This document shows, piece after piece, positions 6,606 through 42,493 of a stretch of 42,493 bases of DNA. Each line of letters opens with the position of its first letter. Within the stretch, counting starts at the first letter, position 1. The position numbers and the translations under genes were made by a program. The DNA is taken from sequence record SRR9188677_155. The stretch is one strand, 5' to 3'. Below the pieces are notes generated by a model that was not told where the DNA came from, made no database searches, and saw nothing but the letters and a program-made list of their open reading frames with translations.

Positions 6606-6617
6606 ACTCCATAACCT

Positions 6618-12862: not shown

Positions 12863-12871
12863 AAACCCAAC

Positions 12872-16225: not shown

Positions 16226-16247
16226 TTTTAATGGTTGTTTATTAATT

Positions 16248-17060: not shown

Positions 17061-17078
17061 TGGAGATGTGTTTCAGTA

Positions 17079-17948
17079 CTAAGTTTCTGACATAAGACTA
17101 TTCAAGAAGTCAGCAACCTCTTTTTTCTCAGCATAGATAGCCCAATCAAGCGGGGTACTATTCCATATTTTATCCTTTATATCAATCCGTGCGCCGCGTT
17201 CCGTCAATAATTTCACCAACTCCAGATGTCCTTCGATTGCCGCCTGATGTAGTGGTGTGGAATGCGAATGGTTTCCTTCCGGGTTGTAACGGTTTGGATC
17301 TTCACCAAGATCAAGCAGTAAGCGGACCACTTCCGTATGCCCCATTTGCGCAGCCAACACCAACGCCCTTTGTCGGCTTTCAGAATCTGCATTCGTATAC
17401 AAATTTCTTGTTTCGTCGGACAGTCCCAATCCGGCAGCGGACGCTACATTATCTACTTTTGCGCCTCTTTCAACCAGTGTTTTGGCAACCGGTAAATAAC
17501 CGAAAGCCAGCGAACTCATCAAGGGCGAAACCCAGTTACCCGAGCCATATCCTTCCAGCGCTGCCCCGTAATCCAGCAAGGTATTCACCAGTTCTACCTG
17601 AACACCGGCATTTGCAGGGTGACAACTCGAAACCAACATGCTCATCGTCGTATGTTGCCCACCGTACATATTCGCCAGCGCATCCACTTCCGACCCGGCA
17701 TCGAGAAGTGTCCTGGTTATTTCAACTGCATTTTTCGGCGTTTTTTGATTTTCGTCTTCCACTCCGTTAGCACCAATATAGTGGAGAAGTGTTGCATGAT
17801 GTTCCCTTTTCGATCGGGCTTTTATGAGCGTTGGATTTTTTGCAAGAAGCGTTTGAAGCAAAGGCAAATCTCCGTTTACGATCGTCTGAACGGCGGATTC
17901 GAAGTCTGAATCGATTGTGCTTTCGGTCGGTTTTCGGTCATCCTTCAT
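17079..17948 (-). CDS. Ankyrin-repeat protein
   Basis: TPLHQAAIEGHLELVKLLTERGA, ALVLAAQMGHTEVVRLLLDLG, TPLDWA. Confidence 0.9.
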   Translation of the reverse strand: MKDDRKPTESTIDSDFESAVQTIVNGDLPLLQTLLAKNPTLIKARSKREHHATLLHYIGANGVEDENQKTPKNAVEITRTLLDAGSEVDALANMYGGQHTTMSMLVSSCHPANAGVQVELVNTLLDYGAALEGYGSGNWVSPLMSSLAFGYLPVAKTLVERGAKVDNVASAAGLGLSDETRNLYTNADSESRQRALVLAAQMGHTEVVRLLLDLGEDPNRYNPEGNHSHSTPLHQAAIEGHLELVKLLTERGARIDIKDKIWNSTPLDWAIYAEKKEVADFLNSLMSET

Positions 17949-28700: not shown

Positions 28701-29420
28701 GCACTAAATTATTATAAGGAAAGAAACCGGATTGTTATCGAAATATCGGAAGCTAGTCCTGACAATGTTGATTACAAAAATAATCTGGGCTTTTCGTATC
28801 TGGCGGTAGGCGTGATTTACCTGGCGCAGACTGATATTGATAGGGCTCTTTCCAACTTGTTGGAATCAATCAAAATCGCCATTGAGAATCACAACAACAA
28901 TCTTGAAATTCTGGAATATCAAAATGATCTGGGACTTACTTTCAAAAGACTTGCGGAAGCCTATTCGGCACTTAACGACTTTGAAAATGAATCAAGATGT
29001 AGTTCAGAATTTTTTTCACATGCAAAGGATCTGTACGGAAAAAGCCCGAATATCATTGAATACAAGAATAATTATGCTGATTCCTGCACGCAAATGGCCA
29101 AAGTCTGTTCCCGTCAAAACAAAATAGGTGAGGCGGTGACTTTGTTGTTCGAAGGGAGAAATCTGCTAACGGAGGTATTAAAGGAAACCAACGGACAAAT
29201 AATCGAATATGCCTATCAGTACGGACTGAACAGTTACGAATTGAGTCGCTTAGGAGACTCTGTCATTCATAGGAGTCAGCCCGTATCTGATGAAGCGAAT
29301 AAAAAAACGGAGATAGCAGAATTGATACGAAAAGAAGGGTTGGATTCGGTTAAGGGACTGGCTGAACAAGGGAGGCTAAAAGCAAGTCAACTTTGGTTGA
29401 TTGACGCGTTGGCAAAATAA
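25719..29420 (+). CDS. NLR-like protein: TIR/DUF4062-like effector domain, STAND (NB-ARC-like) NTPase and TPR array
   Basis: N-terminal FFLASSFELKSER...VGKYTLEEF; FIGREEEL, Walker A AEGGIGKT, Walker B LLLVLDN, LITSR; long TPR region. Confidence 0.85.
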   Translation: MATYSFFLASSFELKSERERIELILSKKNKELSKYNVFLDLTVWEDEDESIAPTRKQNDYNEKLKVADVLIILYWTKVGKYTLEEFNLAYELSKSNNRVPRVYVYEKELGNEVAGPGLIDFKNLMNEIEHFPRVFTSLDSLENLISQRITTLVTNGFIKTGVPAKLLSPNGAADPNYFIGREEELRKIRERLNATGKLMIINAEGGIGKTTLAARYWNESLFNYKHNAWLFCENGIINSLKDLAPGLNLDLEGLDEKQQVAKLKRALMEVHDQLLLVLDNANDPVEIQEFRQEFEGFHWHVLITSRCNGVLDENQELPITHLPPPLAKDLFVKYYHEDTPDFDQLLDHFLLAINYHTLLVEIFAKNLNEASDVGVTMSSFLEQLAFNGLLDLGDMNFGIRSPWVERQKIKAANVEDILEFLYDFSELTEQQRLALVNIALLPAENYPLIFLISLIASGEIGFRSIVKELYQKGWLGGADKTYRISPVIQNLVLGKNSETLAFDAEQMLDNLAGRLENDGSQFIRSLNEIAPFARLVPALSQNLSQFSSPQLKALLLNAGLYFELTGNILAAKQLYEEYGERSSEDNDDEAVATSYQKLGQLYGIEGDSDSAFFYYQEAYKINNELHQAYPDEILYKFNLASSFDQFGQFYQDSGDQKNAFKNFSEYHRIVKEIFDTDPHDVYYKNSLSVTYARLGSFYIGLGDRQNALRYYNDFHRITKEIYQINPKDFVLKNNLSISFSNLGSLYESTGNRKLALEHYLEYQRLIQEIYAANPENLDYKDSLASSYDSLGNFYNGAGDRRNALKYYNEFQKIAKEVNLASPNQLSFKDSLATSFDRLGNFYESAGDRDMALSHYTEFLRITEEIYQINPGYIDYKNNMAISFERLGGFYEGSGDIENTLKYYKLYQGIIRDIYQITPENLFYKNNLAVSFDRLGKVYEALGNWQEALDMYTQYEKFATEVFLASPENLDYKNGLGFSYKRLGAISEAKGNWEEALNYYKERNRIVIEISEASPDNVDYKNNLGFSYLAVGVIYLAQTDIDRALSNLLESIKIAIENHNNNLEILEYQNDLGLTFKRLAEAYSALNDFENESRCSSEFFSHAKDLYGKSPNIIEYKNNYADSCTQMAKVCSRQNKIGEAVTLLFEGRNLLTEVLKETNGQIIEYAYQYGLNSYELSRLGDSVIHRSQPVSDEANKKTEIAELIRKEGLDSVKGLAEQGRLKASQLWLIDALAK
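27603..29180 (+). repeat. Intragenic array of 48-aa (144-bp) TPR-like repeats, about 11 units
   Basis: Units start YPDE, DPHD, NPKD, NPEN, SPNQ, NPGY, TPEN, SPEN, SPDN, NLEI, SPNI; consensus P-x4-YKNxLAxSxxxLGxxY. Confidence 0.85.
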
Positions 29421-30596: not shown

Positions 30597-32531
30597 TCAA
30601 TACCTCCCACCAATAACCCTATCATTCAGATCCGCATATTTTCCTGCCAGCTTTGGCAACCGTTTTGGTGTATTGGCAGAAGAAGTAGTGTCAGTTAAAG
30701 CTTTCAAAAAGGAAACCAGGTCTTGCTTTTCCAAAACAGTCAGGTTCAGATGATCGGGTAAAATAGTCCATATGACTTTCTCTTTTAAAAATTCGTTGCC
30801 GCCGCCATGATTGTAGAAATCGACAACCTGTTCAAGCGTTTGATATATTCCGTTATGCATATACGGAGCTGTTAAGGCGACATTTCTGATCGTAGGTGTC
30901 TTGAAGGAAAATTTGAATAATGGATTTTGAGTAGAATGTTCTTCGCCAATATCCGGATCAACTTTGTAAGTGCTCATGGTGTCGCGTATCGGAACACCCA
31001 AACTTCGATGGTCATTAGTGCTATAATATGGAGGCAAAGTTCCGTTAAATAAGGGCGCATAGTGACAGCTTCCACATCTGCCTTTCCCCATAAAAATGTT
31101 AAATCCATTGATTTCATTTTTGGTCAACGCCGACTTGTTTCCCCGAACGTATTGATCAAATGGAGAATTGAGTCCTACCAAGGTTCTCTCATAAGTAGCG
31201 ATGGCAGATTTAATCTGTTTTCGTCCAATTCCATTTTTAACCGTTTCCGGAAAAGCCTTTTGAAATAACTTCACGTATTCGTCGCTCGCCCTTATTCGCA
31301 TGGTCACATTCTCGAAAGAGCTATGCAGTTCCTCGGAATTCATCACAACCGAATCGGCCTGGTCTTCAAGCGAGTTCACTCGTGAGTCCCAAAACTGAGC
31401 CTTTTGATAAACAGAATTAATCACAGTAGGGGAGTTACGGGGAAGCTGTTTCATTGTAAAACTCATGCTTTTTTGGAAACCGTCGGTAAAAGCTTTTTCT
31501 GGTTTATGGCACGATGCGCAAGCTCTTTGATTATTGTCGGACAGGATCGGATCAAAAAACAACAACTTTCCCAATTCGACCCGTTTGGCTGTTAAAGCAT
31601 TGGTCTTTTCGGGAGCAAAATAATCACCATTAAACGCATTCAAATCAAATAGATTATCTGATTCCGGGTTCATCGCTGCAAAATTATCGACAAGTGGGAT
31701 ATTTAAAGTCTTCCGCAATTGTGTTAAATCAACCGAAAGCGGATTCAGGAATTCGGTGATAAATGCCATTCTGTCGAAACTGTTGAAGTCTTGATTGTTA
31801 GCCATAAATTGTTCAGCTCCGGCCAGCTTTTGTAGTATCTCTGGTTTTAAAGCAGAATTATCCGGAAGCTGGTCGACATACAACCTAACTATTTGTGACC
31901 AACTTTCGATCTCCGCTTTTACACATAGCAGGTTAACCGGATTCAATTGAAAGTCACCATTGCCAATACCAACGCTTGTTATGCGAAACATTTGAAGTCG
32001 AAGTGCATCCATAACGCGTTCGTCTGTTAGTTTTTCGAGATCATTTGCGTAGTCTGTTGCATTAATGGACTCCCTAAACGCCTCGGAAGCCCGTTTAATA
32101 AACATGACTCCAAATTCAATTGCTTTTTTATTTTCTTTTGCCAAAACCGAATCCGCTTCAATACCAAAAGGCCCTGCGATCAGAAAATTGTCGGGAATTG
32201 GCGGTCCGGCTTTTTGTGGAGTTAATTGAATGGGTTGCCATATCAGCTTATACGCCGCCTCCTGATGGAAATAGATAAAGAAGAGCTCCACACGTTTGAG
32301 TTGTTGTGCTAGTTGGTTGTACTTTTCTAAACGCAAAACATAACTGCTATCCATAAAATAAGTTGGATATACAGCAAGCAAGGAATCAAGCTTTTGCATT
32401 TCGGAGAGGTAAATCTGTCCGGCCAAATTGGCGGTTTTCGTTCTTTCTAAAGGTTGTTCCTGTCTGAGAACTGCCGCGCAAAACAGGGCTACAATGGTTG
32501 TAACAAAAATCAAGACGTATATCTTTTTCAT
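30597..32531 (-). CDS. Di-heme cytochrome c peroxidase / MauG-family protein with long N-terminal extension
   Basis: LGKLLFFDPILS, CASCH, RNSPT, FWDSR, CGSCH, FKTPTIRNVALTAPYMHNG. Confidence 0.92.
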   Translation of the reverse strand: MKKIYVLIFVTTIVALFCAAVLRQEQPLERTKTANLAGQIYLSEMQKLDSLLAVYPTYFMDSSYVLRLEKYNQLAQQLKRVELFFIYFHQEAAYKLIWQPIQLTPQKAGPPIPDNFLIAGPFGIEADSVLAKENKKAIEFGVMFIKRASEAFRESINATDYANDLEKLTDERVMDALRLQMFRITSVGIGNGDFQLNPVNLLCVKAEIESWSQIVRLYVDQLPDNSALKPEILQKLAGAEQFMANNQDFNSFDRMAFITEFLNPLSVDLTQLRKTLNIPLVDNFAAMNPESDNLFDLNAFNGDYFAPEKTNALTAKRVELGKLLFFDPILSDNNQRACASCHKPEKAFTDGFQKSMSFTMKQLPRNSPTVINSVYQKAQFWDSRVNSLEDQADSVVMNSEELHSSFENVTMRIRASDEYVKLFQKAFPETVKNGIGRKQIKSAIATYERTLVGLNSPFDQYVRGNKSALTKNEINGFNIFMGKGRCGSCHYAPLFNGTLPPYYSTNDHRSLGVPIRDTMSTYKVDPDIGEEHSTQNPLFKFSFKTPTIRNVALTAPYMHNGIYQTLEQVVDFYNHGGGNEFLKEKVIWTILPDHLNLTVLEKQDLVSFLKALTDTTSSANTPKRLPKLAGKYADLNDRVIGGRY

Positions 32532-32709
32532 GTTGAGTCGAGGTGATAAGGCAGAATTTTATTCAGTCAGAAGCGACAGGTATTAAGAGCAAAAGTTAGG
32601 TAAAGATATGCCTGATTACAAGCCGGTTAATAAGTTGTGGTGATGGGGTTTGTGGCTGGGGCTGGCACCGGTTTGTGATTGGGGGCGGCCCACGCTGGGT
32701 TTTTGTGGT

Positions 32710-32808
32710 TTAGCGTTTTCAACGCGTTTTTGAAATCCCCGGACCGTGCGTTGAAAACGCTAAGCAAGGACCGCCCCGATTGCAAAACAGGGTGGGCTCG
32801 TTCCTTGC
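32710..32808. repeat. Cluster of REP-like palindromes
   Basis: Perfect 16-bp inverted repeat TTAGCGTTTTCAACGC (32710-32725) / GCGTTGAAAACGCTAA (32748-32763). It is followed by a degenerate CCGCCCCGATTGCAAAACAGGGTGG copy bracketed by GCAAGGA/TCCTTGC. Confidence 0.75.
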
Positions 32809-32853
32809 AATCGTAACACATTGTGTTCGATTTACAAGGATGAAAAATTAGTT

Positions 32854-33528
32854 TCAGCGTAATCGCACATCGTGACGCCCTGTCAAGAGCCGCCCCGATT
32901 GCAAATCGGGGCGAGCTGAACACTGGTAAAATTCAGGTCTGCTACTTTTTTTCATTTTTTTGTTGATTGGAAACTGAGCACCAATGCCATAGCTATTAAA
33001 AAATAGTTTACCACTATAACCGCTGAAATTAGCTGTGCCGATTAAACTAATTCCTTTCATAATGCCATAATTTAACCCGATCCCGGTACTATATCTCATC
33101 AAACCCTTGTTATATACGAACGATTTCGCGTTTCTTTGTTCAATAGGAACGGCAGGATTATTGGTAGCTATATGTTGAAAGTGAAATTGATCTTCAAACA
33201 ATCTTAACTTAATAAATGGGGTAAACTTTTTGTTGAGAATATTCCATTGGATCTCTGGAACAAGTTGGAGATAAGTTACCTTCCAGCCATTCAGATTGCT
33301 GTCCTTCGGATTATATATACCTATATCTTGTTTCAGCAGGACCCCTATAGATAATTGTTTGAAGACAAAAAAATGCATCGAAGTACTTACTCCAAAATCT
33401 AAACGGCGAAGCCTCGCATTTTTTAATATAAAGAGTTCCGGACTAACCATTATTTGACCTTTTCTCGTCTGCCCCAGACAAATATTAGAGCTCAGAAACA
33501 TCGTTAGCAATAGTATTTTTAATTTCAT
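32854..33528 (-). CDS. Hypothetical secreted protein, probable outer-membrane beta-barrel; C-terminus possibly extended by a frameshift
   Basis: Signal peptide ending CLG-Q; amphipathic strands GIGLNYG and YGIGAQF. Confidence 0.65.
   Translation of the reverse strand: MKLKILLLTMFLSSNICLGQTRKGQIMVSPELFILKNARLRRLDFGVSTSMHFFVFKQLSIGVLLKQDIGIYNPKDSNLNGWKVTYLQLVPEIQWNILNKKFTPFIKLRLFEDQFHFQHIATNNPAVPIEQRNAKSFVYNKGLMRYSTGIGLNYGIMKGISLIGTANFSGYSGKLFFNSYGIGAQFPINKKMKKSSRPEFYQCSARPDLQSGRLLTGRHDVRLR
32889..32916. repeat. REP-like palindrome, family A (best copy)
   Basis: CGCCCCGATT-GCA-AATCGGGGCG, a perfect 10-bp stem with a 3-nt loop. Confidence 0.8.
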
Positions 33529-33755
33529 AGAATCGGGATGTGTTATTTAACAGGCAGTTGAAATAACAATTTGACTACAATAACCTTATTAGGTCACGGT
33601 ACTGTTTGGGAACCCAAACAGCGCTCCAACGAGAACTGCAATCAGTGCTGAATATTGGGCATTTAATTGCCAATCCCGATTGGCGATTAAAACGATCCTC
33701 TTGGATTAGGCGTTCCCTTCTATGATGTCAACTCATTTGTTGAATCTTATTAGCA

Positions 33756-33819
33756 CGCGTTACAAACACTTTGCAGGGATGTATAGTCAAGGGCCACCTG
33801 ATTGCAAATCGCGCGGGGC
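33756..33819. repeat. Two degenerate REP-like palindromes
   Basis: CGCGTTACAAAC (33756-33767) and GATTGCAAATCGCGCGGGGC (33800-33819). Confidence 0.65.
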
Positions 33820-33887
33820 TTGTTTTCAAGAATCGGTAAAATTTATTCGTTGATTTAAGTTTTAATTCCAAATTTTAGTTTATTTCC

Positions 33888-34015
33888 TCACCCTTCCACA
33901 ATCCCAATCTCCTCCTCAGTCAGCCCATAAACCAATTGATCAATTTGCTTTTTCGAGAATTAAGTGTCGTAAAATGAATCGTTTGCTTTTACTTCAAGAG
34001 GTATTTTTTGACAAC
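33888..34015 (-). pseudogene. C-terminal remnant of a type IIG (Eco57I/TaqI-like) restriction-modification enzyme
   Basis: Hand translation: ...LEVKANDSFYDT*FSKKQIDQLVYGLTEEEIGIVEG*. This matches the type IIG C-terminal signature IDxLVYxLYGLTxEEIxxVE, with an internal stop and an apparent 3-codon deletion. Confidence 0.75.
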
Positions 34016-34074
34016 GGAAGGAATATTTCGCTAATACAGGTTGCCTGTTTGAGTAAAACGAAATCGTTGTAAGA

Positions 34075-34094
34075 TTGCCGCCACGCGGTGGCAA
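34075..34094. terminator. GC-rich stem-loop downstream of the WD40 gene
   Basis: TTGCCGCC-ACGC-GGTGGCAA, 22 nt past the stop. It lacks a U-tract on the 3' side in the minus orientation. Confidence 0.4.
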
Positions 34095-34116
34095 AAAAAT
34101 GAGACATTACTAATCC

Positions 34117-36984
34117 TCAATCCCTAACCCCATAACGCTCCTTCGTCTCATCTGAAAGCGGCATTAAAAACCTGTCCCCAAAAAGCCGGATCCATTCCTT
34201 TATTTCTTCATAAGTGTAATCCATTTTTTCACCAGCCACAAACTTGAAAAAACGCCCCTTTTTATACGGATCGGCCTTGAATACCTCGGTTCCGGCAGTA
34301 ATATAAAGCGTAGTGTCTCCAACCAGTTTTATGTCAATGGGATTGTGACTTAAGTGAAGTTGAAGCAACGGTTTTCCAGATGGCAATTCAAAACTTTCAA
34401 TGCGGTACTTTGTTTGTACCACCAAAATTCTTCCGTCCTGCGAAAAAGTAGCGGAGCGGATTTTCTTATCCTTCAGAAAGTCGACACTTTTTCCAGCAAT
34501 CAAGTCCCATATTTCTACCGTGCTATCGCGATTAGTAGTGACCAGCCATTTGCTGTCGTAAGAAAACTCGGCCCTTCGGATCATTTTTTCATTCTTCAAA
34601 AAGTCATGAAATTGTCCCAGAGGCGGTTCCCATACCTTCGTTGTGGAATTATAACTATTATCATCGATGGTAACCATCCATTTGCTGTCCAGTGAAAACG
34701 ACACATCACTAATATTCTTTTCATTACCTAAAAAACGCTGTAGCTTGCCTGATTCCAAGTCACAAAACTGCGTCGTGCCATCGCTATATTGTACCAAGAT
34801 CCATCTGCTGTCGCTAGAAAAGGTGGCGTTGTTGTACCTATTACTGGTTTTTAAGAAGGCCGGTTTCTCGCCGGTGGAGATTTTTACTAAAACGGCCTTA
34901 CTGAAACCATTTCTGGCAATGAACCATTGGCCATCATCCGAAAATTTTACATCGAACAACTGTGATTGATCCTTTAGGAAATCTGGTTCCTTACCACTGA
35001 CAAGCTCCAGTACTTTTGATTCGGTTCGTCCATCGGTAAGGACGACGTATCGATTATCTGGTGAAAAAGCGACCCGATATACAGGTGTTTCCAAGGAATC
35101 ATGCAACATCCCGGTGTCCAATTCCCATATTTTTGCCTTGTTATTCGCATTCAATGTGACAATCCATTTGCTGTCTGGAGAGAAGTCAACTTGCCTGATC
35201 CCAGGCTCATTCTTTAGAAAATCTTTGACTGTTCCTGATGTTGTACTCCATACTTTCGTAGTGATGCTATCATTGGTGATGATCCAGTTGCTGTTAGGGG
35301 AAATCGTTGCGAAACGGATGTATTTCTCTTTTTTTAAGAAATTTGGCGTGTTTCCTGACAACGTTTCAGACACTTTGGACTCTTTAAAGTCATTTGTGGT
35401 TGTTATGATCCATTTCCCATCTCTGGAGATTCTGGTAAATTTTAGGGGCTGTTTATGTCTTACCAAAGCCGGTACTTCTTCGGAAGTCAACTTCCACTTT
35501 TTTAAGCTATTGTTCTTATGCTCTGTAATAAGGTATTGACTATCTGTTGTAAAAGAAACTTCGGAAAGCTTGATTTCATCTCTCAAAAAATCTTGTTCTC
35601 TACCGGAAGAGACCTCCCAGACCTTGTTGGTTTTATCTGTAGCTTTAGTGAGAATCCATTTGCTGTCGGGTGAGAAAGTGGCTTTTGCAATCCCTCTTTC
35701 ATCACTCATGATATCCATGATTTTGCAAGAAACAACATCCCACAACTTGGCTGTGTGGTTGGCGTGCCGGGTAAGAACCCATTTGCTGTCGTGCGAGAAA
35801 ACTGCCTCAGTTGTTTGACTCGTGTCTTTCAGAACACAACGAATCTTATCGGACGTCAGGTCCCAAACTTTCGTATCCTCCGCCCATGACAACACCCATT
35901 TGCCATCGTCCGAAAAATAAGCCTGAACTAAGTCTTTTTCATCTTTGAGGAAATCGTGGGCGGTTCCGGAAGGAAGTTCCCAAATTTTAAGCTGATAATT
36001 TTGACTTAACGTCATCAGCCATCGGTCATCAGCAGAAAATTCACCCGCCATCACCTGTTTTTCGTCCCTGAGAATATCATGGATTTTGCCGGACTCTGTG
36101 TCCACAACACTCGCGCTACCGTTGGAAAATATGGTCATTACCCAACTTCCGCTTGGGGAAAAGCTGGCATTAAGAATCGGTTTTTCCTTACTAAAATAAT
36201 CAGGAATTTTGCCGAGCGCTAAGTTCCATAAAGATATCGACTCGATTTCGTGGTTAATAACAATCCACTTGCTGTCTGAAGAAAAGATTAGCCGCTCCAT
36301 CGAATTTTTTTTTGGCAAATCCTGAGAGTTTTTTGTGGCAAGGTTCCAAACCTTTGCCTTATCCCATTGGTCGATAATTAGCCATTTGCTATCATTTGAA
36401 AAAACTGCTTGAAAGACACCTTTCTCATTATCTAAAAAATTGAGCGCCAGGCCCGAATCTGCGTCCTGAATTCCGACGGTTTTGTCAGCATTAATTGTGA
36501 CTATCCATCGGCCGTTTGGTGAGATGGCGTCACCTGGATTAAATTGAAACCTCGTTTTTTCATGAAACTGATGAACACCGCTTCCGTTAAATATCTTCTT
36601 TGTTTGCTGTCTAACAAAGCTAAGCGCCCTTTCTTCTTTCGTTTTTTCGGCTGCTTTTTCCAGCAATCGAAGTCCCTCGCCGGGAGTTAGTTTATCCGCC
36701 TCAGATGCCCAATATAAAGCAGTTGCGGCACTTTGTTGTATTACTGCTTCCTTTTTCTCATTTTCAATTCTGTCGAACAGATTGTTAATGAGTTTATCAA
36801 CTTCCTGGCTTTTCTCAGGTGCGCAAAGTTTTGCTGCGTTGTATTTGTTCAGCGCCTTGCGATAGTCTTTTGCCTGCCTGAAATCATTACCCTGCTTGAT
36901 GAGACCCGGATATTGTGGACAATTTTGGGCAATGATATTGCTTTGAAAAACAAGGAAAACGATGATGGTTAGTATGTTTCTCAT
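34117..36984 (-). CDS. Secreted protein with an N-terminal TPR-like helix pair and about 18-19 WD40-like repeats
   Basis: Signal peptide MRNILTIIVFLVFQSNIIA-Q; AKDYRKALNKYNAA; ~41-aa repeats with FS-x-D-S/G-KW and K-V/I-W-D/E. Its start overlaps the upstream stop (ATGA). Confidence 0.88.
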   Translation of the reverse strand: MRNILTIIVFLVFQSNIIAQNCPQYPGLIKQGNDFRQAKDYRKALNKYNAAKLCAPEKSQEVDKLINNLFDRIENEKKEAVIQQSAATALYWASEADKLTPGEGLRLLEKAAEKTKEERALSFVRQQTKKIFNGSGVHQFHEKTRFQFNPGDAISPNGRWIVTINADKTVGIQDADSGLALNFLDNEKGVFQAVFSNDSKWLIIDQWDKAKVWNLATKNSQDLPKKNSMERLIFSSDSKWIVINHEIESISLWNLALGKIPDYFSKEKPILNASFSPSGSWVMTIFSNGSASVVDTESGKIHDILRDEKQVMAGEFSADDRWLMTLSQNYQLKIWELPSGTAHDFLKDEKDLVQAYFSDDGKWVLSWAEDTKVWDLTSDKIRCVLKDTSQTTEAVFSHDSKWVLTRHANHTAKLWDVVSCKIMDIMSDERGIAKATFSPDSKWILTKATDKTNKVWEVSSGREQDFLRDEIKLSEVSFTTDSQYLITEHKNNSLKKWKLTSEEVPALVRHKQPLKFTRISRDGKWIITTTNDFKESKVSETLSGNTPNFLKKEKYIRFATISPNSNWIITNDSITTKVWSTTSGTVKDFLKNEPGIRQVDFSPDSKWIVTLNANNKAKIWELDTGMLHDSLETPVYRVAFSPDNRYVVLTDGRTESKVLELVSGKEPDFLKDQSQLFDVKFSDDGQWFIARNGFSKAVLVKISTGEKPAFLKTSNRYNNATFSSDSRWILVQYSDGTTQFCDLESGKLQRFLGNEKNISDVSFSLDSKWMVTIDDNSYNSTTKVWEPPLGQFHDFLKNEKMIRRAEFSYDSKWLVTTNRDSTVEIWDLIAGKSVDFLKDKKIRSATFSQDGRILVVQTKYRIESFELPSGKPLLQLHLSHNPIDIKLVGDTTLYITAGTEVFKADPYKKGRFFKFVAGEKMDYTYEEIKEWIRLFGDRFLMPLSDETKERYGVRD

Positions 36985-38780
36985 TTGGCCTTCCTTTTAA
37001 GTTCATCCTCACACTGCTCTATCTTTTCATCTATTTCCTCAGCGGACAAATAGGCATCGTTTCCGACTTCTGATAATCCGCCTTTATAATCTTTGAAATT
37101 TAATTGCAAACGGTGTTTTGCTTTTACTAAATTGTCCAACGCCAATTGATATTCCTGGTATTCCATATAATTTCTGGCAATTCCATAGAAACGTTTTGCT
37201 TCCGCTGCATTGGTTTGTTCAAAAAACAGCTCGGCAGTCTTAAGACTTGTAAGAGAATTTTTATAAGATATATCTGCCTTTACGCGAGACTGGTCTGCCT
37301 CTTCGCGCTGTTGCCTGGCTGAGAGCATGAAGTGCAGGGATGCTGAGCCCATACCCAGGGATACCAGAGCTAATGCATAGGCTATTCGGCTTTTTCCTCG
37401 AACCTTTACATTAAGACTTTCCAATTCCGTGACACGTTCTCGTTCAGCCTCAACTTGTCTCTGAAGTTCTATTTGATGTCTTTCCTGTTTTGCGAGAGCG
37501 GCATGCGTTTCAATCTCTTTTTCTTTTGCTCTACGAACTCTTGCCACTTTCTGGATCGGTTCTACCAATGTATCGTGGCTTACTTCATAGAGCAATCTTC
37601 CGGCCGCATCGCGTTCCTTTCGCAATAATGAGCTTTCTTCCAAGACTTTAAGCAGGGACGGACTCACGTCGAATTCTTCTTCAATATAGGCATCAGAAAG
37701 AGAGTTGCGCCTTTCGTTGGTAATCAGTTTTTCCTCGATCATTTTCTGTGCCTTCTCCCGATTTTCGTCGGAAAGTTTGGCCAGAACGCCCTCATAATAA
37801 TTTTGAAAAATATTGGTGATATCGCTCAGATCTTCAACCGTTATTATTGTCTTCTTTCCTTCGCCAACGAGTGTATCCTCCACATAACGACACACGATCT
37901 GGAGCATCGATGTCTCTATGGTACCATCCTGTTTGTTGGCAATTCCATCTATGATTTTATCAACCGCTTTTTCGGAATAAGTAAATGGGGATGTATAGTA
38001 TAACCCTTCCAGTTGAGAAGGTTTGGAAATGGCTTGTATTGCCTGAAACTGTGTTAATGGAGCCAGTTCATAACAATTCTGTAATATTCCGGGATGCCGG
38101 TTAGTCAGGTTGTTTACCTGCGACAAGCGATCGGAGCGAATGGAAAACACGATTTTTACCTCTGGCATTTCGTACAAAAACGCATGGAAATCGTCGTCTA
38201 TCTTTCCTGCTCCATCCAATTCCCCCAGTTTTTTTCGGTATTTTACAGGAACTGCACTGTACAGTATTTCCGCCAATTGTTCTGAAAAAGCGTCGACAGC
38301 ATCCTTCGGATAAGTGAATAACTCCTCAAACTGGTCGAAGATTAATATGAATGGTTTGCGAGGATAATGCCTTTGTAAAGTTTTAACCCAATGCCAGAAC
38401 GAGTCTTCACCATTTGTCAGGATATTCAATGGTGACTGACTTACTTGCTCTTCACTCAGGATATTCCTTAATCTCTGATTCACCGTTTCGGCCGGATTTA
38501 CACCCTGATCTTCCGTTTTGGAGTAATTATTAAACCGTATAGAAAAATCCTGATAAGGTGTTTCGGCTTTGAGTTTTGGTAAAATCCCGGCATTCAAAAG
38601 CGAACTTTTTCCGTATCCACTCTTACCATAAAGCGTAACTACCTGCTTCACAAATATGAGGCTAAACAGATCAGCTATGTCCCTTTCACGACCGAAAAAC
38701 AGATCCTGTTCGTCAGCCGTAAATGGCTTTACTCCCGGGTAACGGTTTCGCAATACGTTATCTGAAACATCGCTTTCCAT
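36981..38780 (-). CDS. nSTAND1-type P-loop NTPase with coiled coil, one TM helix and a C-terminal TPR-like segment
   Basis: RYPGVKPF, FFGRERD, Walker A GKSGYGKS, Walker B ILIFDQFEELF, SIRSD, YEVSHDTL; TM IAYALALVSLGMGSASLHFML. Confidence 0.88.
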   Translation of the reverse strand: MESDVSDNVLRNRYPGVKPFTADEQDLFFGRERDIADLFSLIFVKQVVTLYGKSGYGKSSLLNAGILPKLKAETPYQDFSIRFNNYSKTEDQGVNPAETVNQRLRNILSEEQVSQSPLNILTNGEDSFWHWVKTLQRHYPRKPFILIFDQFEELFTYPKDAVDAFSEQLAEILYSAVPVKYRKKLGELDGAGKIDDDFHAFLYEMPEVKIVFSIRSDRLSQVNNLTNRHPGILQNCYELAPLTQFQAIQAISKPSQLEGLYYTSPFTYSEKAVDKIIDGIANKQDGTIETSMLQIVCRYVEDTLVGEGKKTIITVEDLSDITNIFQNYYEGVLAKLSDENREKAQKMIEEKLITNERRNSLSDAYIEEEFDVSPSLLKVLEESSLLRKERDAAGRLLYEVSHDTLVEPIQKVARVRRAKEKEIETHAALAKQERHQIELQRQVEAERERVTELESLNVKVRGKSRIAYALALVSLGMGSASLHFMLSARQQREEADQSRVKADISYKNSLTSLKTAELFFEQTNAAEAKRFYGIARNYMEYQEYQLALDNLVKAKHRLQLNFKDYKGGLSEVGNDAYLSAEEIDEKIEQCEDELKRKAK

Positions 38781-38791
38781 ATCGGCTTCGC

Positions 38792-40216
38792 TTAAATGTT
38801 CGCTATCAGTGTTTGAATCCCTTTATCAAAAGTTGAAACGCCGTTTCCAACCGGGTTTCCAACCGGGTTTCCAACCGGGTTCGAAACCGGTATACTCTTG
38901 ATGCTTCTTAACCACGCAATCAGATCGGGAATACCACGGCCGAAATCCAGCCAAAGGGTTTTTTCGTCAGTCAAATCCTGAAGATCGTCCAGCGGATACT
39001 TTTCTTCCCTTTCTGCGATGAGCTGACGGATATTACTGAGCTTGTTTGCTACAAAAGCTTTGATGTTATCTCCCAGGCTTTGATCCATGAAAGCATCATC
39101 CAAGTGGCACGGAATCAGTTTCACTCCGGCTTCCCTTGTAATCGAAATTTCTTTGCTTACCCAGGGAGATTCCAGGCTGTCCTTCGATATCACCACCACC
39201 ACCGCATCCATCTGCTTAATCCGACTCATGAAATTCCGGATTTTTTCACCGGCTGGCATCGATACATCATCAATGATTACGTCGAAATCTGCGGCTTCCA
39301 GTCCGTCCCGGATTTTAGCAACCATCGCCTCGTCCTTGTGCCGGTAGGAGATGAAAATCTTCTTTTTTTGCGATGCACGGAGTCTTCCTTCGCTTTTACA
39401 CTTTGAATACAGCTCATTCAGAAAATCGATGGGCTGAATGGTGTAGAAATCCATCTCCAGACGGCGGGCGATGAACGTGCTCATTTTGTCACTTTGCTCG
39501 GCTGGTAACAGGGAGTATTTCAGAAGCTTTTCGTTATTACCATTTCTGGGAACAAACAGGCGGAGCAGCATTTGCAAATACCACTTTTCGAAATGAACAC
39601 CCAGAAATAGAAAACTTTTGGCACGTTTCAGCGCTTCTTCTACTTCCCGGGGAATCGGCCGTAACGCCAGAATTCCCTGCAGGTAGGAAAAAAGATGATC
39701 AAAAGTAAGCACCGCATCCGGCGGGTCGATAGATCCTAAAATGTTATAAATGAGCGGGATATCTCTGGACGGCTTTTCAGTTGGAAGGGGTGCGTCGGTT
39801 CGGGGATAATAGCTGAAATTGTGCCGGATCTTTTGTTTGTCGAAACTCTTCGTCAGCCGCTGATCGGGCAACAAGGAGATAATGAGATGAAAAGGCAGCA
39901 ATGCGATTTTATCAAAAGGCTCGTCAAATTCGGTCCGGCTGGCATAAAACCTTTCCAAAAAGAGATACAATGCCGTTTCCCGTCCTCCGATTTTAAGCTG
40001 CAAAAGTTCTTCGTGATCGAAGAAAAACTGTGTATCTACCTCGACATGCTTTTGAATGTTGGTGTCGTTTCGCAATTCATCACAAAGAATCTGAAAAAGA
40101 GTCTGATTGTTTTTGTACTCGATCAGATCAGGACCTAAAACCAGAATGCACTGCTGCTGGCGTATCTCATACAGAATCTGATCCCATTCTATATTGTTCT
40201 TCCAGTCGTTATCCAT
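38792..40216 (-). CDS. SIR2-like (SIR2_2, degenerate) domain fused to a TIR domain
   Basis: CILVLGP, LIISLLPD, LIYNILGS, SFLFLGVHFEKWYL; TIR KIFISYRHKD...VVVISKDSLESPWVSKE. Confidence 0.85.
   Translation of the reverse strand: MDNDWKNNIEWDQILYEIRQQQCILVLGPDLIEYKNNQTLFQILCDELRNDTNIQKHVEVDTQFFFDHEELLQLKIGGRETALYLFLERFYASRTEFDEPFDKIALLPFHLIISLLPDQRLTKSFDKQKIRHNFSYYPRTDAPLPTEKPSRDIPLIYNILGSIDPPDAVLTFDHLFSYLQGILALRPIPREVEEALKRAKSFLFLGVHFEKWYLQMLLRLFVPRNGNNEKLLKYSLLPAEQSDKMSTFIARRLEMDFYTIQPIDFLNELYSKCKSEGRLRASQKKKIFISYRHKDEAMVAKIRDGLEAADFDVIIDDVSMPAGEKIRNFMSRIKQMDAVVVVISKDSLESPWVSKEISITREAGVKLIPCHLDDAFMDQSLGDNIKAFVANKLSNIRQLIAEREEKYPLDDLQDLTDEKTLWLDFGRGIPDLIAWLRSIKSIPVSNPVGNPVGNPVGNGVSTFDKGIQTLIANI
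38843..38890. repeat. In-frame 12-bp tandem repeat
   Basis: GTTTCCAACCGG x3 plus a degenerate GTTCGAAACCGG; encodes PVSN-PVGN-PVGN-PVGN. Confidence 0.95.
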
Positions 40217-40369
40217 TGCAAGGTTTCATAAGCGTTAAGTGGTTGAATTTAAGATTTTTCTGAAACATTTCAGAAATTTAATACCTGGTATTTATTAAAT
40301 GGTCGGGCGATTGCAAGGCGTCCTTCCTGAGGTTTCTGGTCACCTTGTAAGCACTTTAACCCAGCCAAC

Positions 40370-42112
40370 TCATGGCTGATCCTTAACCTTGTTAAGCGAA
40401 TCCATTGTTTTTTTCGTCTCTACCAATCTCAATGAATCGTTAATTACGTAATGTGGACGCGAATTCGATCTTGCTATCTTAATCATGGCTTTGAGAATGT
40501 CGTATTTCAACGACTGGAAAGCCAGGGCAACCTTTGGGTCGTTTGGATAGCCCTTACTAAGTTTATCCAAACTTTCCACCAGGTCTGAATTGTAATTCCT
40601 TACAAGGTCAATTCTTTCCAGATTTCGCTGACTTTCTAATTTATCCTTCTGTTTTTCTTTTTTGAATTTAATGTAGTCTCGCCCAACTAGAATGAACAGA
40701 ATCGACAGTACGCCAAAACATCCCCATATGATCCGACTCGTACGCTTCAGCCTGAAATTCAGGTTTTCAAACTTTGTCGCCGTCTGACGTTCCGTCTCTA
40801 TCTGCCTTTGAAGTTCTTCCTGATAGCGTTCCTGTTCAGCCATCGCAGCAAGCGCTTCCGTTTCTTTTTCTTTGGTAATACGTATAGCCGCAACTTTCTG
40901 AATCGGCTCAATCAGCGTATCATGGCTTACCTCGTAGAGCAATCGCCCGGCGGCATCACGTTCCTTCCGCAGTAGTGAGCTTTCTTCCAGGGTTTTTAGC
41001 AATGACTGGCTTACATTAAATTCTTCTTCAATAAAGGCGTCGGAGAGCGAATTGCGGCGATCGTTGGTAATGAGCTTTTCCTCAATCAATTTCTGCGCTT
41101 TTTGTCGATCTGCGTCAGGAAGTCTTGTCAAAACGGCTTCATAATATCTTTGAAAGATATTGGTGATATCGCTAAAATCCTCAGCAGTTATTTCGGTCTT
41201 CCCAAATTCGTTCACCAGCCTGTCTTCAACATACCGGCATACGATTTGAAGCATCGCCGTTTCTATGGTTCCATCCAGTTTGTTGGCAATACCATCGATG
41301 ATTTTAGAGACTGCCGTAGGCGAATAAATGAAAGGTTTTGTAACGTAATTGCCTTCCAATTGCGAAGGATTGGTAATAGCTTCCCTAGCCTGCGGCTGAT
41401 TCAAGGGCGCCAGTTCGTAGCAGTTTTGCAAGATTCCCGGGTGGTGGTAAGTCAGGTTATTCACCTGCGACAACCGGTCCGACCTTATGGAAAAGACAAT
41501 CTTAACCTCCGGCATTTCGTACAGAACTTCGTGAAAGTCGTCTTCTATTAGTCCTTCGGCATCCAGCTCTGCTAATTTTCTACGATACTTAACTGGAACC
41601 GGGCTGTAAAGTATTTCCGCCAGTTGTTCTGAAAAGGCTTCTATTTCTATCTTGGGATAGGTAAAGAGCTCTTCGAACTGGTCAAAAAACAGAATGAATG
41701 GCCTGTCTGGATAATGTTTTTGCAAAGTTTTGATCCAATGCCAAAACGAATCAGTACCATCTGTTAACAGATTTATGGGGGAATTCAATATTTGCTCCTC
41801 TGTCAGGCTGTTCCTAAGCCGCTGATTTACTGTGTCGGTGGGAATTACGCCCTGATCTTCTGCTTTAAGGTAGTTGTTGAACCGGATAGAGAAATCCAGG
41901 TAAGGCGTTTCTGCTTTAAGTTTGGGTAAAATGCCAGCGTTTAATAGTGAACTTTTGCCATAACCGCTTTTGCCATACAATGTTACAACTTGCTTAACAA
42001 AAATGAGGCTGAACAAATCAGCGATGTCTTTCTCGCGGCCAAAAAACAGGTTTTGCTCCTCAACCGTAAAGGGTTTTACGCCGGGATACCGGTTTCGCAA
42101 AGCTGCAATCAT
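40370..42112 (-). CDS. nSTAND1-type P-loop NTPase paralogue with coiled coil, one TM helix and a different C-terminus
   Basis: Same motifs as 36981..38780 (GKSGYGKS, FFDQFEELF, YEVSHDTL); TM IIWGCFGVLSILFILVG. Confidence 0.88.
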   Translation of the reverse strand: MIAALRNRYPGVKPFTVEEQNLFFGREKDIADLFSLIFVKQVVTLYGKSGYGKSSLLNAGILPKLKAETPYLDFSIRFNNYLKAEDQGVIPTDTVNQRLRNSLTEEQILNSPINLLTDGTDSFWHWIKTLQKHYPDRPFILFFDQFEELFTYPKIEIEAFSEQLAEILYSPVPVKYRRKLAELDAEGLIEDDFHEVLYEMPEVKIVFSIRSDRLSQVNNLTYHHPGILQNCYELAPLNQPQAREAITNPSQLEGNYVTKPFIYSPTAVSKIIDGIANKLDGTIETAMLQIVCRYVEDRLVNEFGKTEITAEDFSDITNIFQRYYEAVLTRLPDADRQKAQKLIEEKLITNDRRNSLSDAFIEEEFNVSQSLLKTLEESSLLRKERDAAGRLLYEVSHDTLIEPIQKVAAIRITKEKETEALAAMAEQERYQEELQRQIETERQTATKFENLNFRLKRTSRIIWGCFGVLSILFILVGRDYIKFKKEKQKDKLESQRNLERIDLVRNYNSDLVESLDKLSKGYPNDPKVALAFQSLKYDILKAMIKIARSNSRPHYVINDSLRLVETKKTMDSLNKVKDQP

Positions 42113-42245
42113 AACGAGGGTTTTTACAAAAGTTGAGTAACTTAATTTAATATTTATGAAAAGTATATGTGCTTGTTTTCATACTATTTATTCAGTGTTT
42201 TTTGCAAACTATAAACCCGAATTAGGAGACACAATTTATTCAATC

Positions 42246-42336
42246 CTATTCAACCCTTGTCAGAGTTGACCTGTACGGTGGTATTTCAAACCCGGGGCTT
42301 CACCCCGGGCTATTCATATTTAAGCCCTCCGGGCTT
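42246..42336. repeat. Second REP-like family (double hairpin)
   Basis: CCCGGGG-CTTCA-CCCCGGG (42291-42309), a linker, then AAGCCC-TCC-GGGCTT (42322-42336). A degenerate ATTCAACCCTTGTCAGAGTTG lies upstream. Confidence 0.65.
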
Positions 42337-42401
42337 TCTGACCTAATCCGATCGTCGGGTGCAGTTGAATGCCAGAGCCTTGTTACCGAGTGCGTTGGCT
42401 T

Positions 42402-42492
42402 GGCGAAAAAGCGGGGTGTGCGCGGGCTCAAGCGTGGAAGCTTTTTTTCGCCTTGAATTTTTTGTTACTTTTTGTTTCAAGACAAAAAGTAA
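42402..42492. repeat. Structured intergenic element with two stem-loops at the window edge
   Basis: GGCGAAAAAGC...GCTTTTTTTCGCC (42402-42452) and a perfect 11-bp stem TTACTTTTTGT-TTCAAG-ACAAAAAGTAA (42465-42492). Confidence 0.6.
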
Positions 42493-42493
42493 G

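Follow-up and report, generated by a model that had tools for sequence, protein, structure and literature searches.

A conserved three-gene cassette encoding a pseudo-SIR2-TIR protein, a predicted bitopic nSTAND1 NTPase and a predicted exported repeat protein: a candidate variant of STAND/NLR-like conflict systems that is split and spans the membrane

The window analysed here, a stretch of 42,493 nucleotides from sequence record SRR9188677_155, carries four neighbouring genes on its minus strand: P0001 (40370-42112; 580 aa; nSTAND1 and a transmembrane segment), P0002 (38792-40216; 474 aa; SIR2_2 and TIR_2), P0003 (36981-38780; 599 aa; nSTAND1 and a transmembrane segment) and P0004 (34117-36984; 955 aa; signal peptide and WD40). 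The junctions were read directly from the letters: a spacer of 153 nt (40217-40369, minus strand) lies between P0001 and the three-gene core, the TAA of P0002 is followed by 11 nt (gcgaagccgat) and the ATG of P0003, and genes 3 and 4, P0003 and P0004, share an ATGA overlap at AAATGAGA. The preliminary description of four co-oriented genes with an 11-nt gap and an ATGA overlap is thus borne out, as are its domain calls for all four, because Pfam searches of each gene gave the named matches above the curated cut-offs. Transmembrane and export calls were made from hydropathy, alignment and the Q-rule for signal-peptide cleavage in Bacteroidetes, which is given in the accessible text of PMC5837995 and PMC10653852. 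A simple scan, uninformative for this organism, showed no minus-strand terminator-like site in 40217-40369 (overall, 15 terminator sites compared with 10.0 in shuffles, s.d. 3.2), and a sigma-70 promoter scan gave 18 sites compared with 18.4 in shuffles; both were left out of the operon inference, because Bacteroidota promoters fall outside the consensus used. There was no Rfam match within 32000-42493, and tblastn gave no plasmid match for a 23-aa relic ORF downstream of P0004.

P0003 matches nSTAND1 (PF20703) with an E-value of 3.4e-37 (129.4 bits, cut-off 27.1), and its NTPase/helical/winged-helix module occupies about 37473-38741 on the minus strand. The Walker A (K53-S60) and Walker B (D149-E153) motifs are invariant in 35 homologues. 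In the AF2 model (pLDDT 84.4) an AAA+-like core is followed by a helical and a winged-helix domain, and Foldseek returned ORC/Cdc6, MalT (8bob), CED-4, the NB-ARC domain of NRC1, NLRP14 and wheat resistosomes with E-values of 1e-9 to 1e-6. A continuous helix then runs through residues 403-540, with further helices at 544-559 and 580-598. The predicted transmembrane segment (residues 466-488; 37317-37385, minus strand), 23 uncharged residues between arginines, has a Kyte-Doolittle score of 1.48, the weakest of the set; the 80%-identical orthologue on metagenome contig L027 scores 2.89, and 20 of 22 NTPases have one segment scoring at least 1.6. Beyond it lies a predicted extracytoplasmic tail (36984-37316, minus strand) with a TPR-like hairpin (residues 530-558; 37107-37193, minus strand) and, in its last helix, Cys590. 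Unlike a classical tripartite STAND, P0003 stops 111 residues past the membrane segment and has no C-terminal repeat sensor in the same chain. It matched none of the families of PADLOC-DB v2.0.0 (2023), searched as HMMs.

P0002 combines a SIR2-like domain (residues 1-280; about 39377-40216, minus strand; SIR2_2, E-value 1e-7, 32.6 bits, cut-off 24.5) with a TIR domain (residues 283-380; about 39077-39370, minus strand; TIR_2, E-value 3.3e-19, 70 bits, cut-off 28). The best Foldseek match in the PDB to its AF2 model (mean pLDDT 83.7) is the Thoeris protein ThsA (6lhx, E-value 9.7e-10), a SIR2-SLOG NADase, with DSR2 and KomC/HAM-SIR2 also among the matches, and the SIR2-like domain also aligns with ThsA at profile level (E-values of 6e-7 and 1e-5). 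This alignment places Leu116 at the Asn of the ThsA TTNYD motif and Leu160 at the His of the HG motif. Two deposited ThsA chains differ only at this Asn (TTNYD and TTAYD), and it is therefore the engineered active-site residue. The family has its own motifs at the catalytic sites, S-L-L-P-D and N-I-L-G; the GAG-type loop is absent from the SIR2-like domain of P0002, and among 144 further SIR2-like family representatives none of the 122 that bear the motif has the catalytic-site His. Because both the catalytic Asn and the His are replaced, the SIR2 half is no candidate NADase, and the 'SIR2-TIR' protein is, on its sequence, better read as a pseudo-SIR2 adaptor joined to a TIR domain. In the TIR domain, Glu356 (codon 39149-39151, minus strand) is invariant in 28 homologues and aligns with the TIR Glu of RPS4 and Cat1; we take its position to be that of the catalytic Glu of TIR domains. 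The TIR domain is the likely output of the cassette.

The likeness to ThsA raises the alternative of a Thoeris-like logic within one protein, in which a nucleotide made by the TIR domain would be bound by the adjacent SIR2-like domain, with that domain or a distant effector as executioner. The whole of P0002 superposes best on ThsA, in which SIR2 is followed by the Rossmann-like SLOG domain, and there are weak TIR-level matches to ThsB and ThcB4 models. However, neither the catalytic Asn and His nor the GAG-type loop is present in the SIR2-like domain, the protein reaches 44.9 on the NCBIfam ThcB4 model, whose cut-off is 220, and in most relatives the non-enzymatic EAD11 stands at the TIR position (see below), so that we consider this reading very improbable. 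Thoeris itself pairs a ThsA bearing a SLOG or Macro sensor with a separate TIR protein, ThsB; here the TIR domain takes the place of SLOG, there is no ThsB partner, P0002 is linked to a STAND NTPase instead, and the PADLOC ThsB matches are confined to the TIR region (residues 260-391).

P0004 matches many WD40 and beta-propeller families in Pfam (best E-value 9e-55). Its N-terminus is a predicted signal peptide (36928-36984, minus strand), a signal-peptide-like segment ending in IIA-Q, which is followed by a TPR-like hairpin with the conserved Cys22 and Cys54, together with a helix (36715-36927, minus strand). Behind these lie some 17-18 WD40-like blades, each about 41 aa long (34345-36525, minus strand); their number was read from a list of 16 anchors in which two segments contain a second anchor. 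The [A/G]-Q pair at the predicted cleavage site is kept in 17 of 18 aligned sensors, and the N-terminal hairpin in all 18, whatever the C-terminal domain. Recombination between highly similar WD40 repeats, which is seen in fungal NLRs, was considered and dropped because Tandem Repeats Finder saw no DNA-level array in the P0004 gene.

In order to see which parts of this arrangement are conserved, we compared 26 related loci, counting gene order in the 20 genome loci that a search with the SIR2-TIR profile retrieved. In all 20, a same-strand nSTAND1 gene lies directly downstream of the SIR2-TIR gene, so the arrangement is not due to chance. A separate exported third gene follows in 16 of the 20; its product of 584-1160 aa opens with a signal peptide, followed by the conserved hairpin. 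Of the other four loci, two encode sensor and NTPase as a single chain (L002, in which WD40 follows the transmembrane segment, and L007, with LRR and no such segment), one has no sensor and is followed by SecA (L008), and one stops at a contig edge. The metagenome contig L027 holds an orthologous trio at 87, 80 and 80% identity. The cassette was present in six of 401 sampled Bacteroidota genomes. The conserved unit, as far as sequence can tell, is three genes and not four: a SIR2-like/TIR protein, a single predicted bitopic nSTAND1 NTPase and a predicted exported protein with a swappable repeat domain. The fixed order, the exported third gene and the relatives with fused NTPase-transmembrane-WD40 or LRR chains together support the earlier proposal of three distinct polypeptides for effector, switch and sensor, the last of them located outside the cytoplasm.

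The third genes differ in their C-terminal domains: among the 16 loci, six are WD40-like (by tblastn to P0004), one has LRR, two have DUF2610 (one of them with TPR_19 as well) and seven match no Pfam family. An Atlas structure look-up hinted at a propeller in one of these seven, which we record as a lead only. Such variation bears on a second reading of the same anatomy, which fits equally a guard or tether that holds the NTPase off or anchors it to the envelope, the trigger being loss, cleavage or displacement of the exported protein by envelope damage, phage, toxin or protease. In favour of this reading, the sensor-less forms, L008 and P0001, show that the NTPase can exist without an exported protein. 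A domain swapped between WD40, LRR, TPR-type and unassigned folds behind a constant hairpin, however, is the pattern usual for a part that determines specificity rather than for a constant tether, and we regard the guard as rather unlikely.

The hairpins follow the split closely. HMMs built from the NTPase tail hairpin and from the sensor hairpin match only the split systems used to build them; neither found a match in P0001, in the NTPase of the sensor-less L008, in the fused L002 and L007 or in L028-L032. L002 lacks both hairpins, because its WD40 part begins about 25 residues past the transmembrane segment and aligns from residue 76 of P0004. The NTPase tail hairpin is therefore restricted to systems in which the sensor has a gene of its own. 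The similarity between the two hairpins is weak (hhalign probability 30%). Four of five distant nSTAND1 relatives are single chains in which the NTPase and transmembrane segment are followed by 600-1000 further residues, matching WD40 and TPR, LRR or no Pfam family, and fused NTPase-repeat relatives include L002, L007, L028 and L030.

P0001, the additional NTPase of the window, is also a clear nSTAND1 protein (PF20703, E-value 2.8e-34, 119.8 bits, cut-off 27.1). Its NTPase module (about 40862-42088, minus strand) is followed by a single clear hydrophobic segment (residues 459-477; 40682-40738, minus strand; 1.98 in a Kyte-Doolittle window of 19) and a divergent tail of 103 aa (40373-40681, minus strand) without TPR-like hairpin or Cys. 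It is 75% identical to P0003 over 480 aa, the similarity stopping at the transmembrane segment, and the Walker A and B motifs are intact in both (GKSGYGKSS and FIL(I/F)FDQFEE). Identity at third codon positions is 48%, and the differing codons among 454 comprise 185 synonymous and 101 non-synonymous changes. In the tree, P0001 is the closest paralogue of P0003, within a clade that also contains P0072 and L027 (support 100/100), on a branch of 0.22 compared with 0.10. Its sole match among the PADLOC families had an E-value of 0.007 over 28 residues of the P-loop. By sequence, then, P0001 is an old, lineage-specific and selectively maintained paralogue of P0003 outside the conserved cassette, and it may provide another input to the same TIR partner or modulate P0003.

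The two-NTPase layout that the preliminary description had singled out does not stand as a feature of the system, since a second NTPase is missing from all 16 loci whose upstream sequence extends for at least 1.9 kb, and P0001 lacks the sensor-linked tail module; L027 is too short to show whether close relatives keep the pair. These findings also weigh on the reading in which all four genes form one system, with P0001 and P0003 paired as a hetero-oligomer, as helper and sensor or with one as decoy, and sharing the TIR partner and the WD40 protein in the manner of paired plant NLRs. The position of P0001, co-oriented and 153 nt upstream with no terminator-like site in the (uninformative) scan, its purifying selection and intact Walker motifs, and its being the closest paralogue of P0003 would all suit such a pair. 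Against this, a second NTPase is missing from every informative relative, and the P0001 tail lacks the hairpin and Cys common to all separate-sensor NTPases; we therefore hold a four-gene system to be unlikely, though less so than the guard.

In every locus the cassette lies between unrelated housekeeping genes, at a site that differs from genome to genome (in L017 between eutB and eutC); in L010 it adjoins a transposase. Toxin-antitoxin or conflict-type genes adjoin it in five of 15 loci: NB-ARC STANDs and HipA in L001, RES in L003, patatin in L005 and L015, and YLATT-pYEATS in L014. The window itself shows no defence island, PADLOC giving only generic matches (ankyrin, methyltransferase and TPR) on 20 neighbouring ORFs; it is flanked by a SusC/SusD locus and redox enzymes. 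This context, and a sensor predicted to be extracytoplasmic when the characterised bacterial STANDs sense cytoplasmic phage proteins (accessible text of PMC12803255), would agree with a role outside immunity, in which gliding or filamentous Bacteroidota would use the cassette for signalling across the envelope or for programmed death, be it under envelope stress, in recognizing kin or in social behaviour; nSTAND-type systems have been tied to the multicellular habit (Kaur 2020/2021, from the portions available). However, a TIR domain with the catalytic Glu and a STAND switch are hallmarks of conflict systems, and the patchy distribution, the different insertion site in each genome and the conflict-type neighbours point the same way, making a non-immune role about as improbable as the guard.

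The reading that we prefer, and think somewhat more probable than not, is that the P0002-P0003-P0004 operon is the functional unit, a split membrane-spanning STAND switch with an exported sensor and a TIR output. The combination of a repeat protein that is exported, an ATPase that crosses the membrane and a TIR protein in the cytoplasm looks like an immune-type switch that reads outside signals. In the mechanism that we infer, P0004 would be exported by Sec, its swappable repeat domain (here the long WD40 array) serving as the ligand-binding part, and the TPR-like hairpin at its N-terminus would bind the matching one in the extracytoplasmic P0003 tail, which one long membrane-crossing helix would join to the cytoplasmic P-loop/winged-helix switch. 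An outside ligand would alter the packing of the helices and so license NTP-dependent oligomerization of the cytoplasmic NTPase modules. P0002, bound through its catalytically dead SIR2-like domain, would then have its TIR domains gathered, and the resulting NAD+ hydrolysis or nucleotide signal would lead to growth arrest or death. Several observations run against this preferred reading. In L007 the sensor that goes with the same effector-NTPase pair is cytoplasmic, which shows that the family can do without the membrane; the window has no recognized defence island, with nothing relevant from PADLOC on the 20 ORFs; and both the P0003 transmembrane segment and the hairpin similarity are weak. 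For bacterial STANDs, we found no experimentally studied precedent, in the literature as accessible, for an extracytoplasmic trigger with an output of the abortive-infection type.

The absence of a match to a named system, which the preliminary description had suspected, holds for the PADLOC HMMs, considered family by family: no family fits the cassette NTPases, the Avs and NLR models included. Avs and bNACHT proteins likewise couple a P-loop STAND switch to a repeat sensor and to a death effector, which may be a TIR domain, and oligomerization-driven activation is expected for them, as we propose for the cassette; however, as far as the accessible sources describe them, they are single cytoplasmic polypeptides sensing phage proteins inside the cell, whereas the cassette has three polypeptides and a predicted exported sensor. 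The accessible part of a preprint (bioRxiv 10.1101/2022.07.19.500537) mentions that TM-type bNACHT C-termini probably sense signals within the membrane or in the periplasm. The nSTAND1 conflict systems of Kaur, Iyer, Burroughs and Aravind (eLife 2021, PMC8195603) contain the same NTPase family (PF20703) and share the logic of effector, STAND switch and superstructure-forming repeats. The accessible text places nSTAND1 in bDLD3/EAD10 and EACC1 systems and contains no description of a SIR2-like partner, a bitopic NTPase with a separate exported sensor or paired hairpins, although its figures and supplements may show related neighbourhoods. Also comparable are the DGR-diversified STAND sensors of multicellular bacteria (PNAS 2024, PMC10907252), nSTAND1/NACHT proteins with predicted periplasmic sensors that are proposed to sense antigens; according to the text available, the sensor part there is a C-type-lectin/FGE domain in the same chain as the NTPase, and a retroelement mutates it, whereas the cassette has no DGR and its WD40 gene no DNA-level tandem repeats. 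Our literature search, which included the accessible text of the nSTAND1 papers (PMC10907252, PMC8195603 and a 2026 ParA preprint), found no paper describing the three-gene cassette or mentioning a SIR2-TIR fusion, and EAD11 in no relevant paper text. Among proteins of 831-2370 aa no longer homologue of P0002, such as a fused SIR2-TIR-NTPase, was found, which is weak evidence against the preferred reading. Our verdict is that the cassette belongs to the STAND/NLR-like conflict systems as a new variant, one that is split and spans the membrane.

By analogy only, the layout recalls animal Toll-like receptors, with a repeat sensor outside, a single membrane pass and TIR inside, and plant TIR-NLRs, in which a STAND switch drives TIR assembly; the cassette differs in having its parts as separate proteins and in its pseudo-SIR2, and we claim no homology beyond the TIR, STAND and repeat domains. 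More speculatively, and with less confidence than we place in the operon, the cassette could be a receptor of Toll-like topology with an NLR-like switch, in which an exported swappable repeat protein, joined through a disulfide-stapled hairpin to the tail that a single-pass STAND extends into the periplasm, reports danger (from the phage machinery for adsorption or ejection, from contact-dependent attack or from predators) to a TIR domain on a dead-sirtuin adaptor; in the lineage of the window the tail-swapped second NTPase would act as helper or as decoy, much as in the NLR pairs of plants. If true, bacteria would offer a natural case of innate-immune signalling from outside to inside, laid out like a Toll-like receptor and switched like an NLR. 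The bacterial NLR-like proteins studied by experiment are, in the accessible literature, single cytoplasmic chains that recognize phage proteins inside the cell; in the cassette the recognition part would be exported and exchangeable, the switch membrane-crossing and the output TIR.

Two parts may be reusable. One is the small hairpin pair, found exactly where a fused receptor became split. The other is the catalytically dead sirtuin domain, which on present sequences is the constant companion of this NTPase clade, bearing either TIR or the EAD11 adaptor: it lies upstream in all five distant nSTAND1 loci, with EAD11 in four and TIR in one. The presence of EAD11 there recalls the effector-associated adaptors of the nSTAND1 conflict systems. 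In EAD-coupled conflict systems (Kaur 2020) the same EAD occurs on core and effector; Pfam found no EAD on the window proteins, and in the distant loci none was seen on the NTPases that accompany an EAD11-bearing SIR2-like protein. Across 110 SIR2-like representatives, EAD11 was the partner in 76, TIR_2 in 24, a caspase in one and nSTAND1, as a fusion, in one; this sole fusion, P0193, is possibly a gene-calling artefact. A minor feature of P0002 itself is a PVGN tetrapeptide repeat (38831-38890, minus strand), which in the DNA is a 12-nt tandem repeat.

The four co-oriented genes of the preliminary description were confirmed in position, all on the minus strand, and its domain assignments were all borne out in Pfam, with scores above the curated cut-offs. 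They encode P0001 (40370-42112), an nSTAND1 NTPase (E 2.8e-34) with a clear TM segment at residues 459-477; P0002 (38792-40216), with SIR2_2 at residues 121-244 and TIR_2 at residues 287-379; P0003 (36981-38780), a second nSTAND1 NTPase (E 3.4e-37) with a weaker TM segment at residues 466-488; and P0004 (34117-36984), with WD40/beta-propeller families along the protein. Reading the junctions directly gave a 153-nt spacer between P0001 and P0002 and verified the 11 nt between P0002 and P0003 and the ATGA overlap of the P0003 and P0004 genes. Profile, motifs and fold all show both NTPases to be bona fide nSTAND1 STANDs; they share 75% identity across the first 480 residues and are unrelated beyond the hydrophobic segment, which in P0003 comprises 23 uncharged residues flanked by arginines, with a hydropathy of 1.48 compared with 2.0-3.1 in relatives. 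P0004 begins with a signal-peptide-like segment whose last residues are A-Q, and has about 17-18 WD40-like blades, each of ~41 residues; no DNA-level tandem repeat was found in its gene.

The SIR2-TIR protein P0002 has 67 homologous clusters (best match 51% identical), and all organism names given by the sources were Bacteroidota. A profile built from 28 homologues, searched against species genomes, yielded 20 loci, in every one of which a single nSTAND1 gene lies directly downstream on the same strand. It is followed at 16 of the 20 by a separate, tightly linked third gene (584-1160 aa); at two, the sensor is fused to the NTPase (L002, NTPase-TM-WD40, 1161 aa; L007, NTPase-LRR, 1024 aa, without a TM segment); at L008 the third gene is absent and SecA follows the NTPase; and at L006 the contig edge is reached. 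The closest relative is an orthologous trio (87, 80 and 80% identity) on L027, a metagenome contig of 2.6 kb, too short to reveal the presence or absence of P0001. The NTPase clade is rare, with an E<=1e-30 match in six of 401 sampled Bacteroidota genomes.

The two-NTPase layout, previously proposed as a feature of the system, did not survive this comparison: a second nSTAND1 match upstream was found at none of the 16 loci with at least 1.9 kb of sequence upstream of the SIR2-TIR gene, the other four having too little to judge. P0001, P0003, the L027 NTPase and the homologue P0072 form a clade with 100/100 support, in which the P0001 branch is the longer (0.22 vs 0.10). P0001 and P0003 are 72.5% identical at the nucleotide level and 48% at third codon positions, and among 454 aligned codons there are 185 synonymous and 101 non-synonymous differences; we therefore rejected a recent duplicate or a pseudogene in favour of an old paralogue under selection. 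The Walker motifs of P0001 are intact, and its tail has neither hairpin nor Cys. P0001 thus belongs to the lineage of the window and lies outside the system as conserved.

All 17 separate third proteins, that of the window included, start with a signal peptide, and with L027 added, the predicted cleavage site is [A/G]-Q in 17 of 18, in keeping with the Q-rule of Bacteroidetes signal peptidase I substrates (PMC5837995, PMC10653852). The signal peptide is followed by a conserved TPR-like hairpin (in P0004, CP.YPGL..QG....Q..DYRKALNKYNAAKLCAP) and then a helix. The body is WD40-like, by similarity to P0004, in the window, L001, L004, L010, L016, L017 and L019, LRR in L020, and DUF2610 in L011 and L014, with TPR_19 also in L011; no Pfam family was found in the bodies of L003, L005, L009, L012, L013, L015 and L018. 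The nearest structures to a low-confidence Atlas model of the L003 sensor were all WD40/PD40 propellers (TM-scores 0.31-0.37), a hint of a propeller that serves as a lead only. The third gene is, then, a constant plug joined to a variable body. In L005 (15955-17457), L013 (15929-17437) and L009 (16481-17923), a fourth co-oriented gene (480-502 aa, without a Pfam family) follows the sensor and could be an additional part specific to that subclade; nothing equivalent occupies this position in the window, the cassette being followed by a 588-nt gap and a 224-aa ORF without a Pfam family.

In split systems the NTPase tail comprises, after the TM segment, a coiled coil, a TPR-like hairpin (RFYGIARNYMEYQEYQLALDNLVKAKHRL in P0003) and a last helix, often with a single Cys. 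The AF2 model of P0003 (pLDDT 84.4) has a continuous helix, 403-540, passing through the TM segment, followed by helices 544-559 and 580-598. HMMs of the tail and sensor hairpins matched split systems only; these were their training set, and the informative part is the lack of matches in P0001, the sensor-less L008 NTPase, the fused L002 and L007 proteins and five distant nSTAND1 NTPases. In L002 the propeller part starts ~25 residues past the TM segment, and its alignment with P0004 begins at residue 76 of the latter, so that both hairpin modules are missing from the continuous chain. The two hairpins resemble one another weakly (hhalign probability 30%, pairwise E 5.6e-4), and we infer that they form a non-covalent substitute for the lost peptide bond.

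P0003 has Cys590 in its last tail helix and P0004 has Cys22 and Cys54 in its hairpin; in alignments of tails and sensors, such a single tail Cys and sensor Cys pair occur together in nine systems (the window, L027, L001, L003, L004, L005, L011, L013 and L014, the last with three hairpin Cys rather than a pair). Both are absent from L012, L016, L017 and L018, and L009, L015 and L010 are mixed. This tracking, which is confounded by phylogeny, agrees with placement in an oxidising (periplasmic) compartment and perhaps with disulfide stapling or linkage.

The AF2 model of P0002 (pLDDT 83.7) had ThsA as its best whole-length match (6lhx, E 9.7e-10), with further matches to DSR2, KomC/HAM-SIR2 and TIR domains. 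A profile of 16 SIR2-like domains matched ThsA with E values of 6e-7 and 1e-5, aligning TTNYD of ThsA with S-L-L-P-D and M-H-G with L-L-G; P0002 has Leu116 and Leu160 at the catalytic positions. Between the two deposited ThsA chains, it is the Asn that differs (TTNYD vs TTAYD), which marks it as the active-site residue. In another 144 representatives of the family, none of the 122 carrying the P-x-x-Y-x-x-x-G motif has His before its Gly, the remaining 22 not matching the pattern and lying outside this count. The replaced catalytic positions and the family-wide absence of the His identify the SIR2-like half, on sequence grounds, as a catalytically dead pseudo-sirtuin. The TIR half seems competent: all 28 homologues have Glu356, which lines up with the Glu of the TIRs of RPS4 and Cat1, taken to be the catalytic residue. 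The output of the cassette is probably the TIR. Within the P0002 gene, a 12-nt tandem repeat (38831-38890, minus strand; four copies) encodes (N)PVG repeats; they fall in a loop modelled at low confidence (residues 450-459) ahead of the last helix, where slippage-prone length variation is possible.

At all five distant nSTAND1 loci a SIR2-like gene lies directly upstream, with an EAD11 fusion at four of them and a TIR_2 fusion at the other; four of these NTPases are long single chains, in which the TM segment precedes WD40+TPR, LRR or regions without a Pfam family, and the fifth is short (547 aa). Library-wide, the SIR2-like profile matched 744 representatives at E<=1e-30, a number that rose to 2428 at 1e-10 and to 4813 at 1e-3. 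In 110 that were scanned, we found SIR2_2 in 105, EAD11 in 76 and TIR_2 in 24, with a caspase domain, an LRR and an nSTAND1 fusion once each. The fusion, P0193 (1158 aa), has nSTAND1 at 35-386, then the SIR2-like domain and a C-terminal EAD11, the last two each as two matched stretches; it is either a natural fusion linking the two families or the product of merged gene calls. This NTPase clade has the pseudo-sirtuin as its constant partner, and the TIR of P0002 occupies the position of EAD11 in most relatives. Under the EAD principle of Kaur et al. 2020, such adaptors connect effectors to a core NTPase. The SIR2-like domain would bind the NTPase, and the domain C-terminal to it would be the output itself if TIR, or recruit the output if EAD11. 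We consider the overall mechanism proposed for the cassette, drawn from its anatomy, moderately probable.

Thoeris, Avs and DSR were each rejected as an identity for the cassette, because tests for their defining features found them lacking. Comparative studies have mentioned TM-bearing STANDs possibly sensing periplasmic signals, namely the bNACHT preprint (bioRxiv 10.1101/2022.07.19.500537), the DGR paper (PMC10907252) and, for other systems, Kaur 2020; nSTAND1 was named in Kaur 2021 (PMC8195603). In the text passages searched, we found no description of the three-gene split form, the paired hairpins or the pseudo-sirtuin partner.

The cassette site differs in every genome. In L017 (Arcicella rosea, 7312-17616), eutB lies upstream and eutC directly downstream; as these encode the two subunits of ethanolamine ammonia-lyase, the arrangement suggests that a mobile cassette has entered an operon. 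One unassigned minus-strand ORF separates eutB from the cassette, and the third gene lies in two frames (13259-14194 and 14157-16589), hence is frameshifted or mis-sequenced. Elsewhere the cassette follows nuoI/nuoJ-like genes (L019) or adjoins lipid A acyltransferase genes (L004), and a transposase fragment neighbours it in L010. Toxin-antitoxin or conflict-type genes adjoin it in five of 15 loci: L001 has two NB-ARC STANDs together with HipA/HTH, L003 has RES, L005 and L015 each have patatin, and L014 has YLATT-pYEATS.

In the window the flanks comprise a SusC/SusD locus, sugar genes and redox enzymes, and a PADLOC scan of the neighbours found nothing relevant. The exception is a NB-ARC/TPR STAND (25719-29420, plus strand, 1233 aa), 4.7 kb from the cassette, with an N-terminal domain of ~170 aa without a Pfam family, followed by NB-ARC and numerous TPRs. 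It is 47% and 56% identical, over 573 and 405 aligned residues, to the two cassette-flanking homologues in L001 (Runella defluvii), one of which has a DUF4062 N-terminus, and its N-terminal domain is found again downstream of the L010 cassette.

A REP-like element, a GC-rich palindrome of 34 nt, occurs three times downstream of the WD40 gene (32765-32798, 32884-32917 and 33787-33820), its first two copies lying inside a 98-aa ORF (32627-32923) that, for this reason, may not be a gene. Just downstream of the same gene, a 23-codon stop-to-stop frame (33888-33959, minus strand) ending ...IDQLVYGLTEEEIGIVEG seems similar to the C-terminal tail often present on methyltransferases of restriction-modification systems or on type IIG enzymes, and could be the relic of a decayed defence gene; tblastn against plasmids gave no match. 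At 3441-8459 (plus strand), genes for a SusC-like TonB-dependent receptor and a SusD-like protein are followed by ROK and MFS sugar-transporter genes, a polysaccharide-utilisation-type locus that supports a Bacteroidota chromosome as the source.
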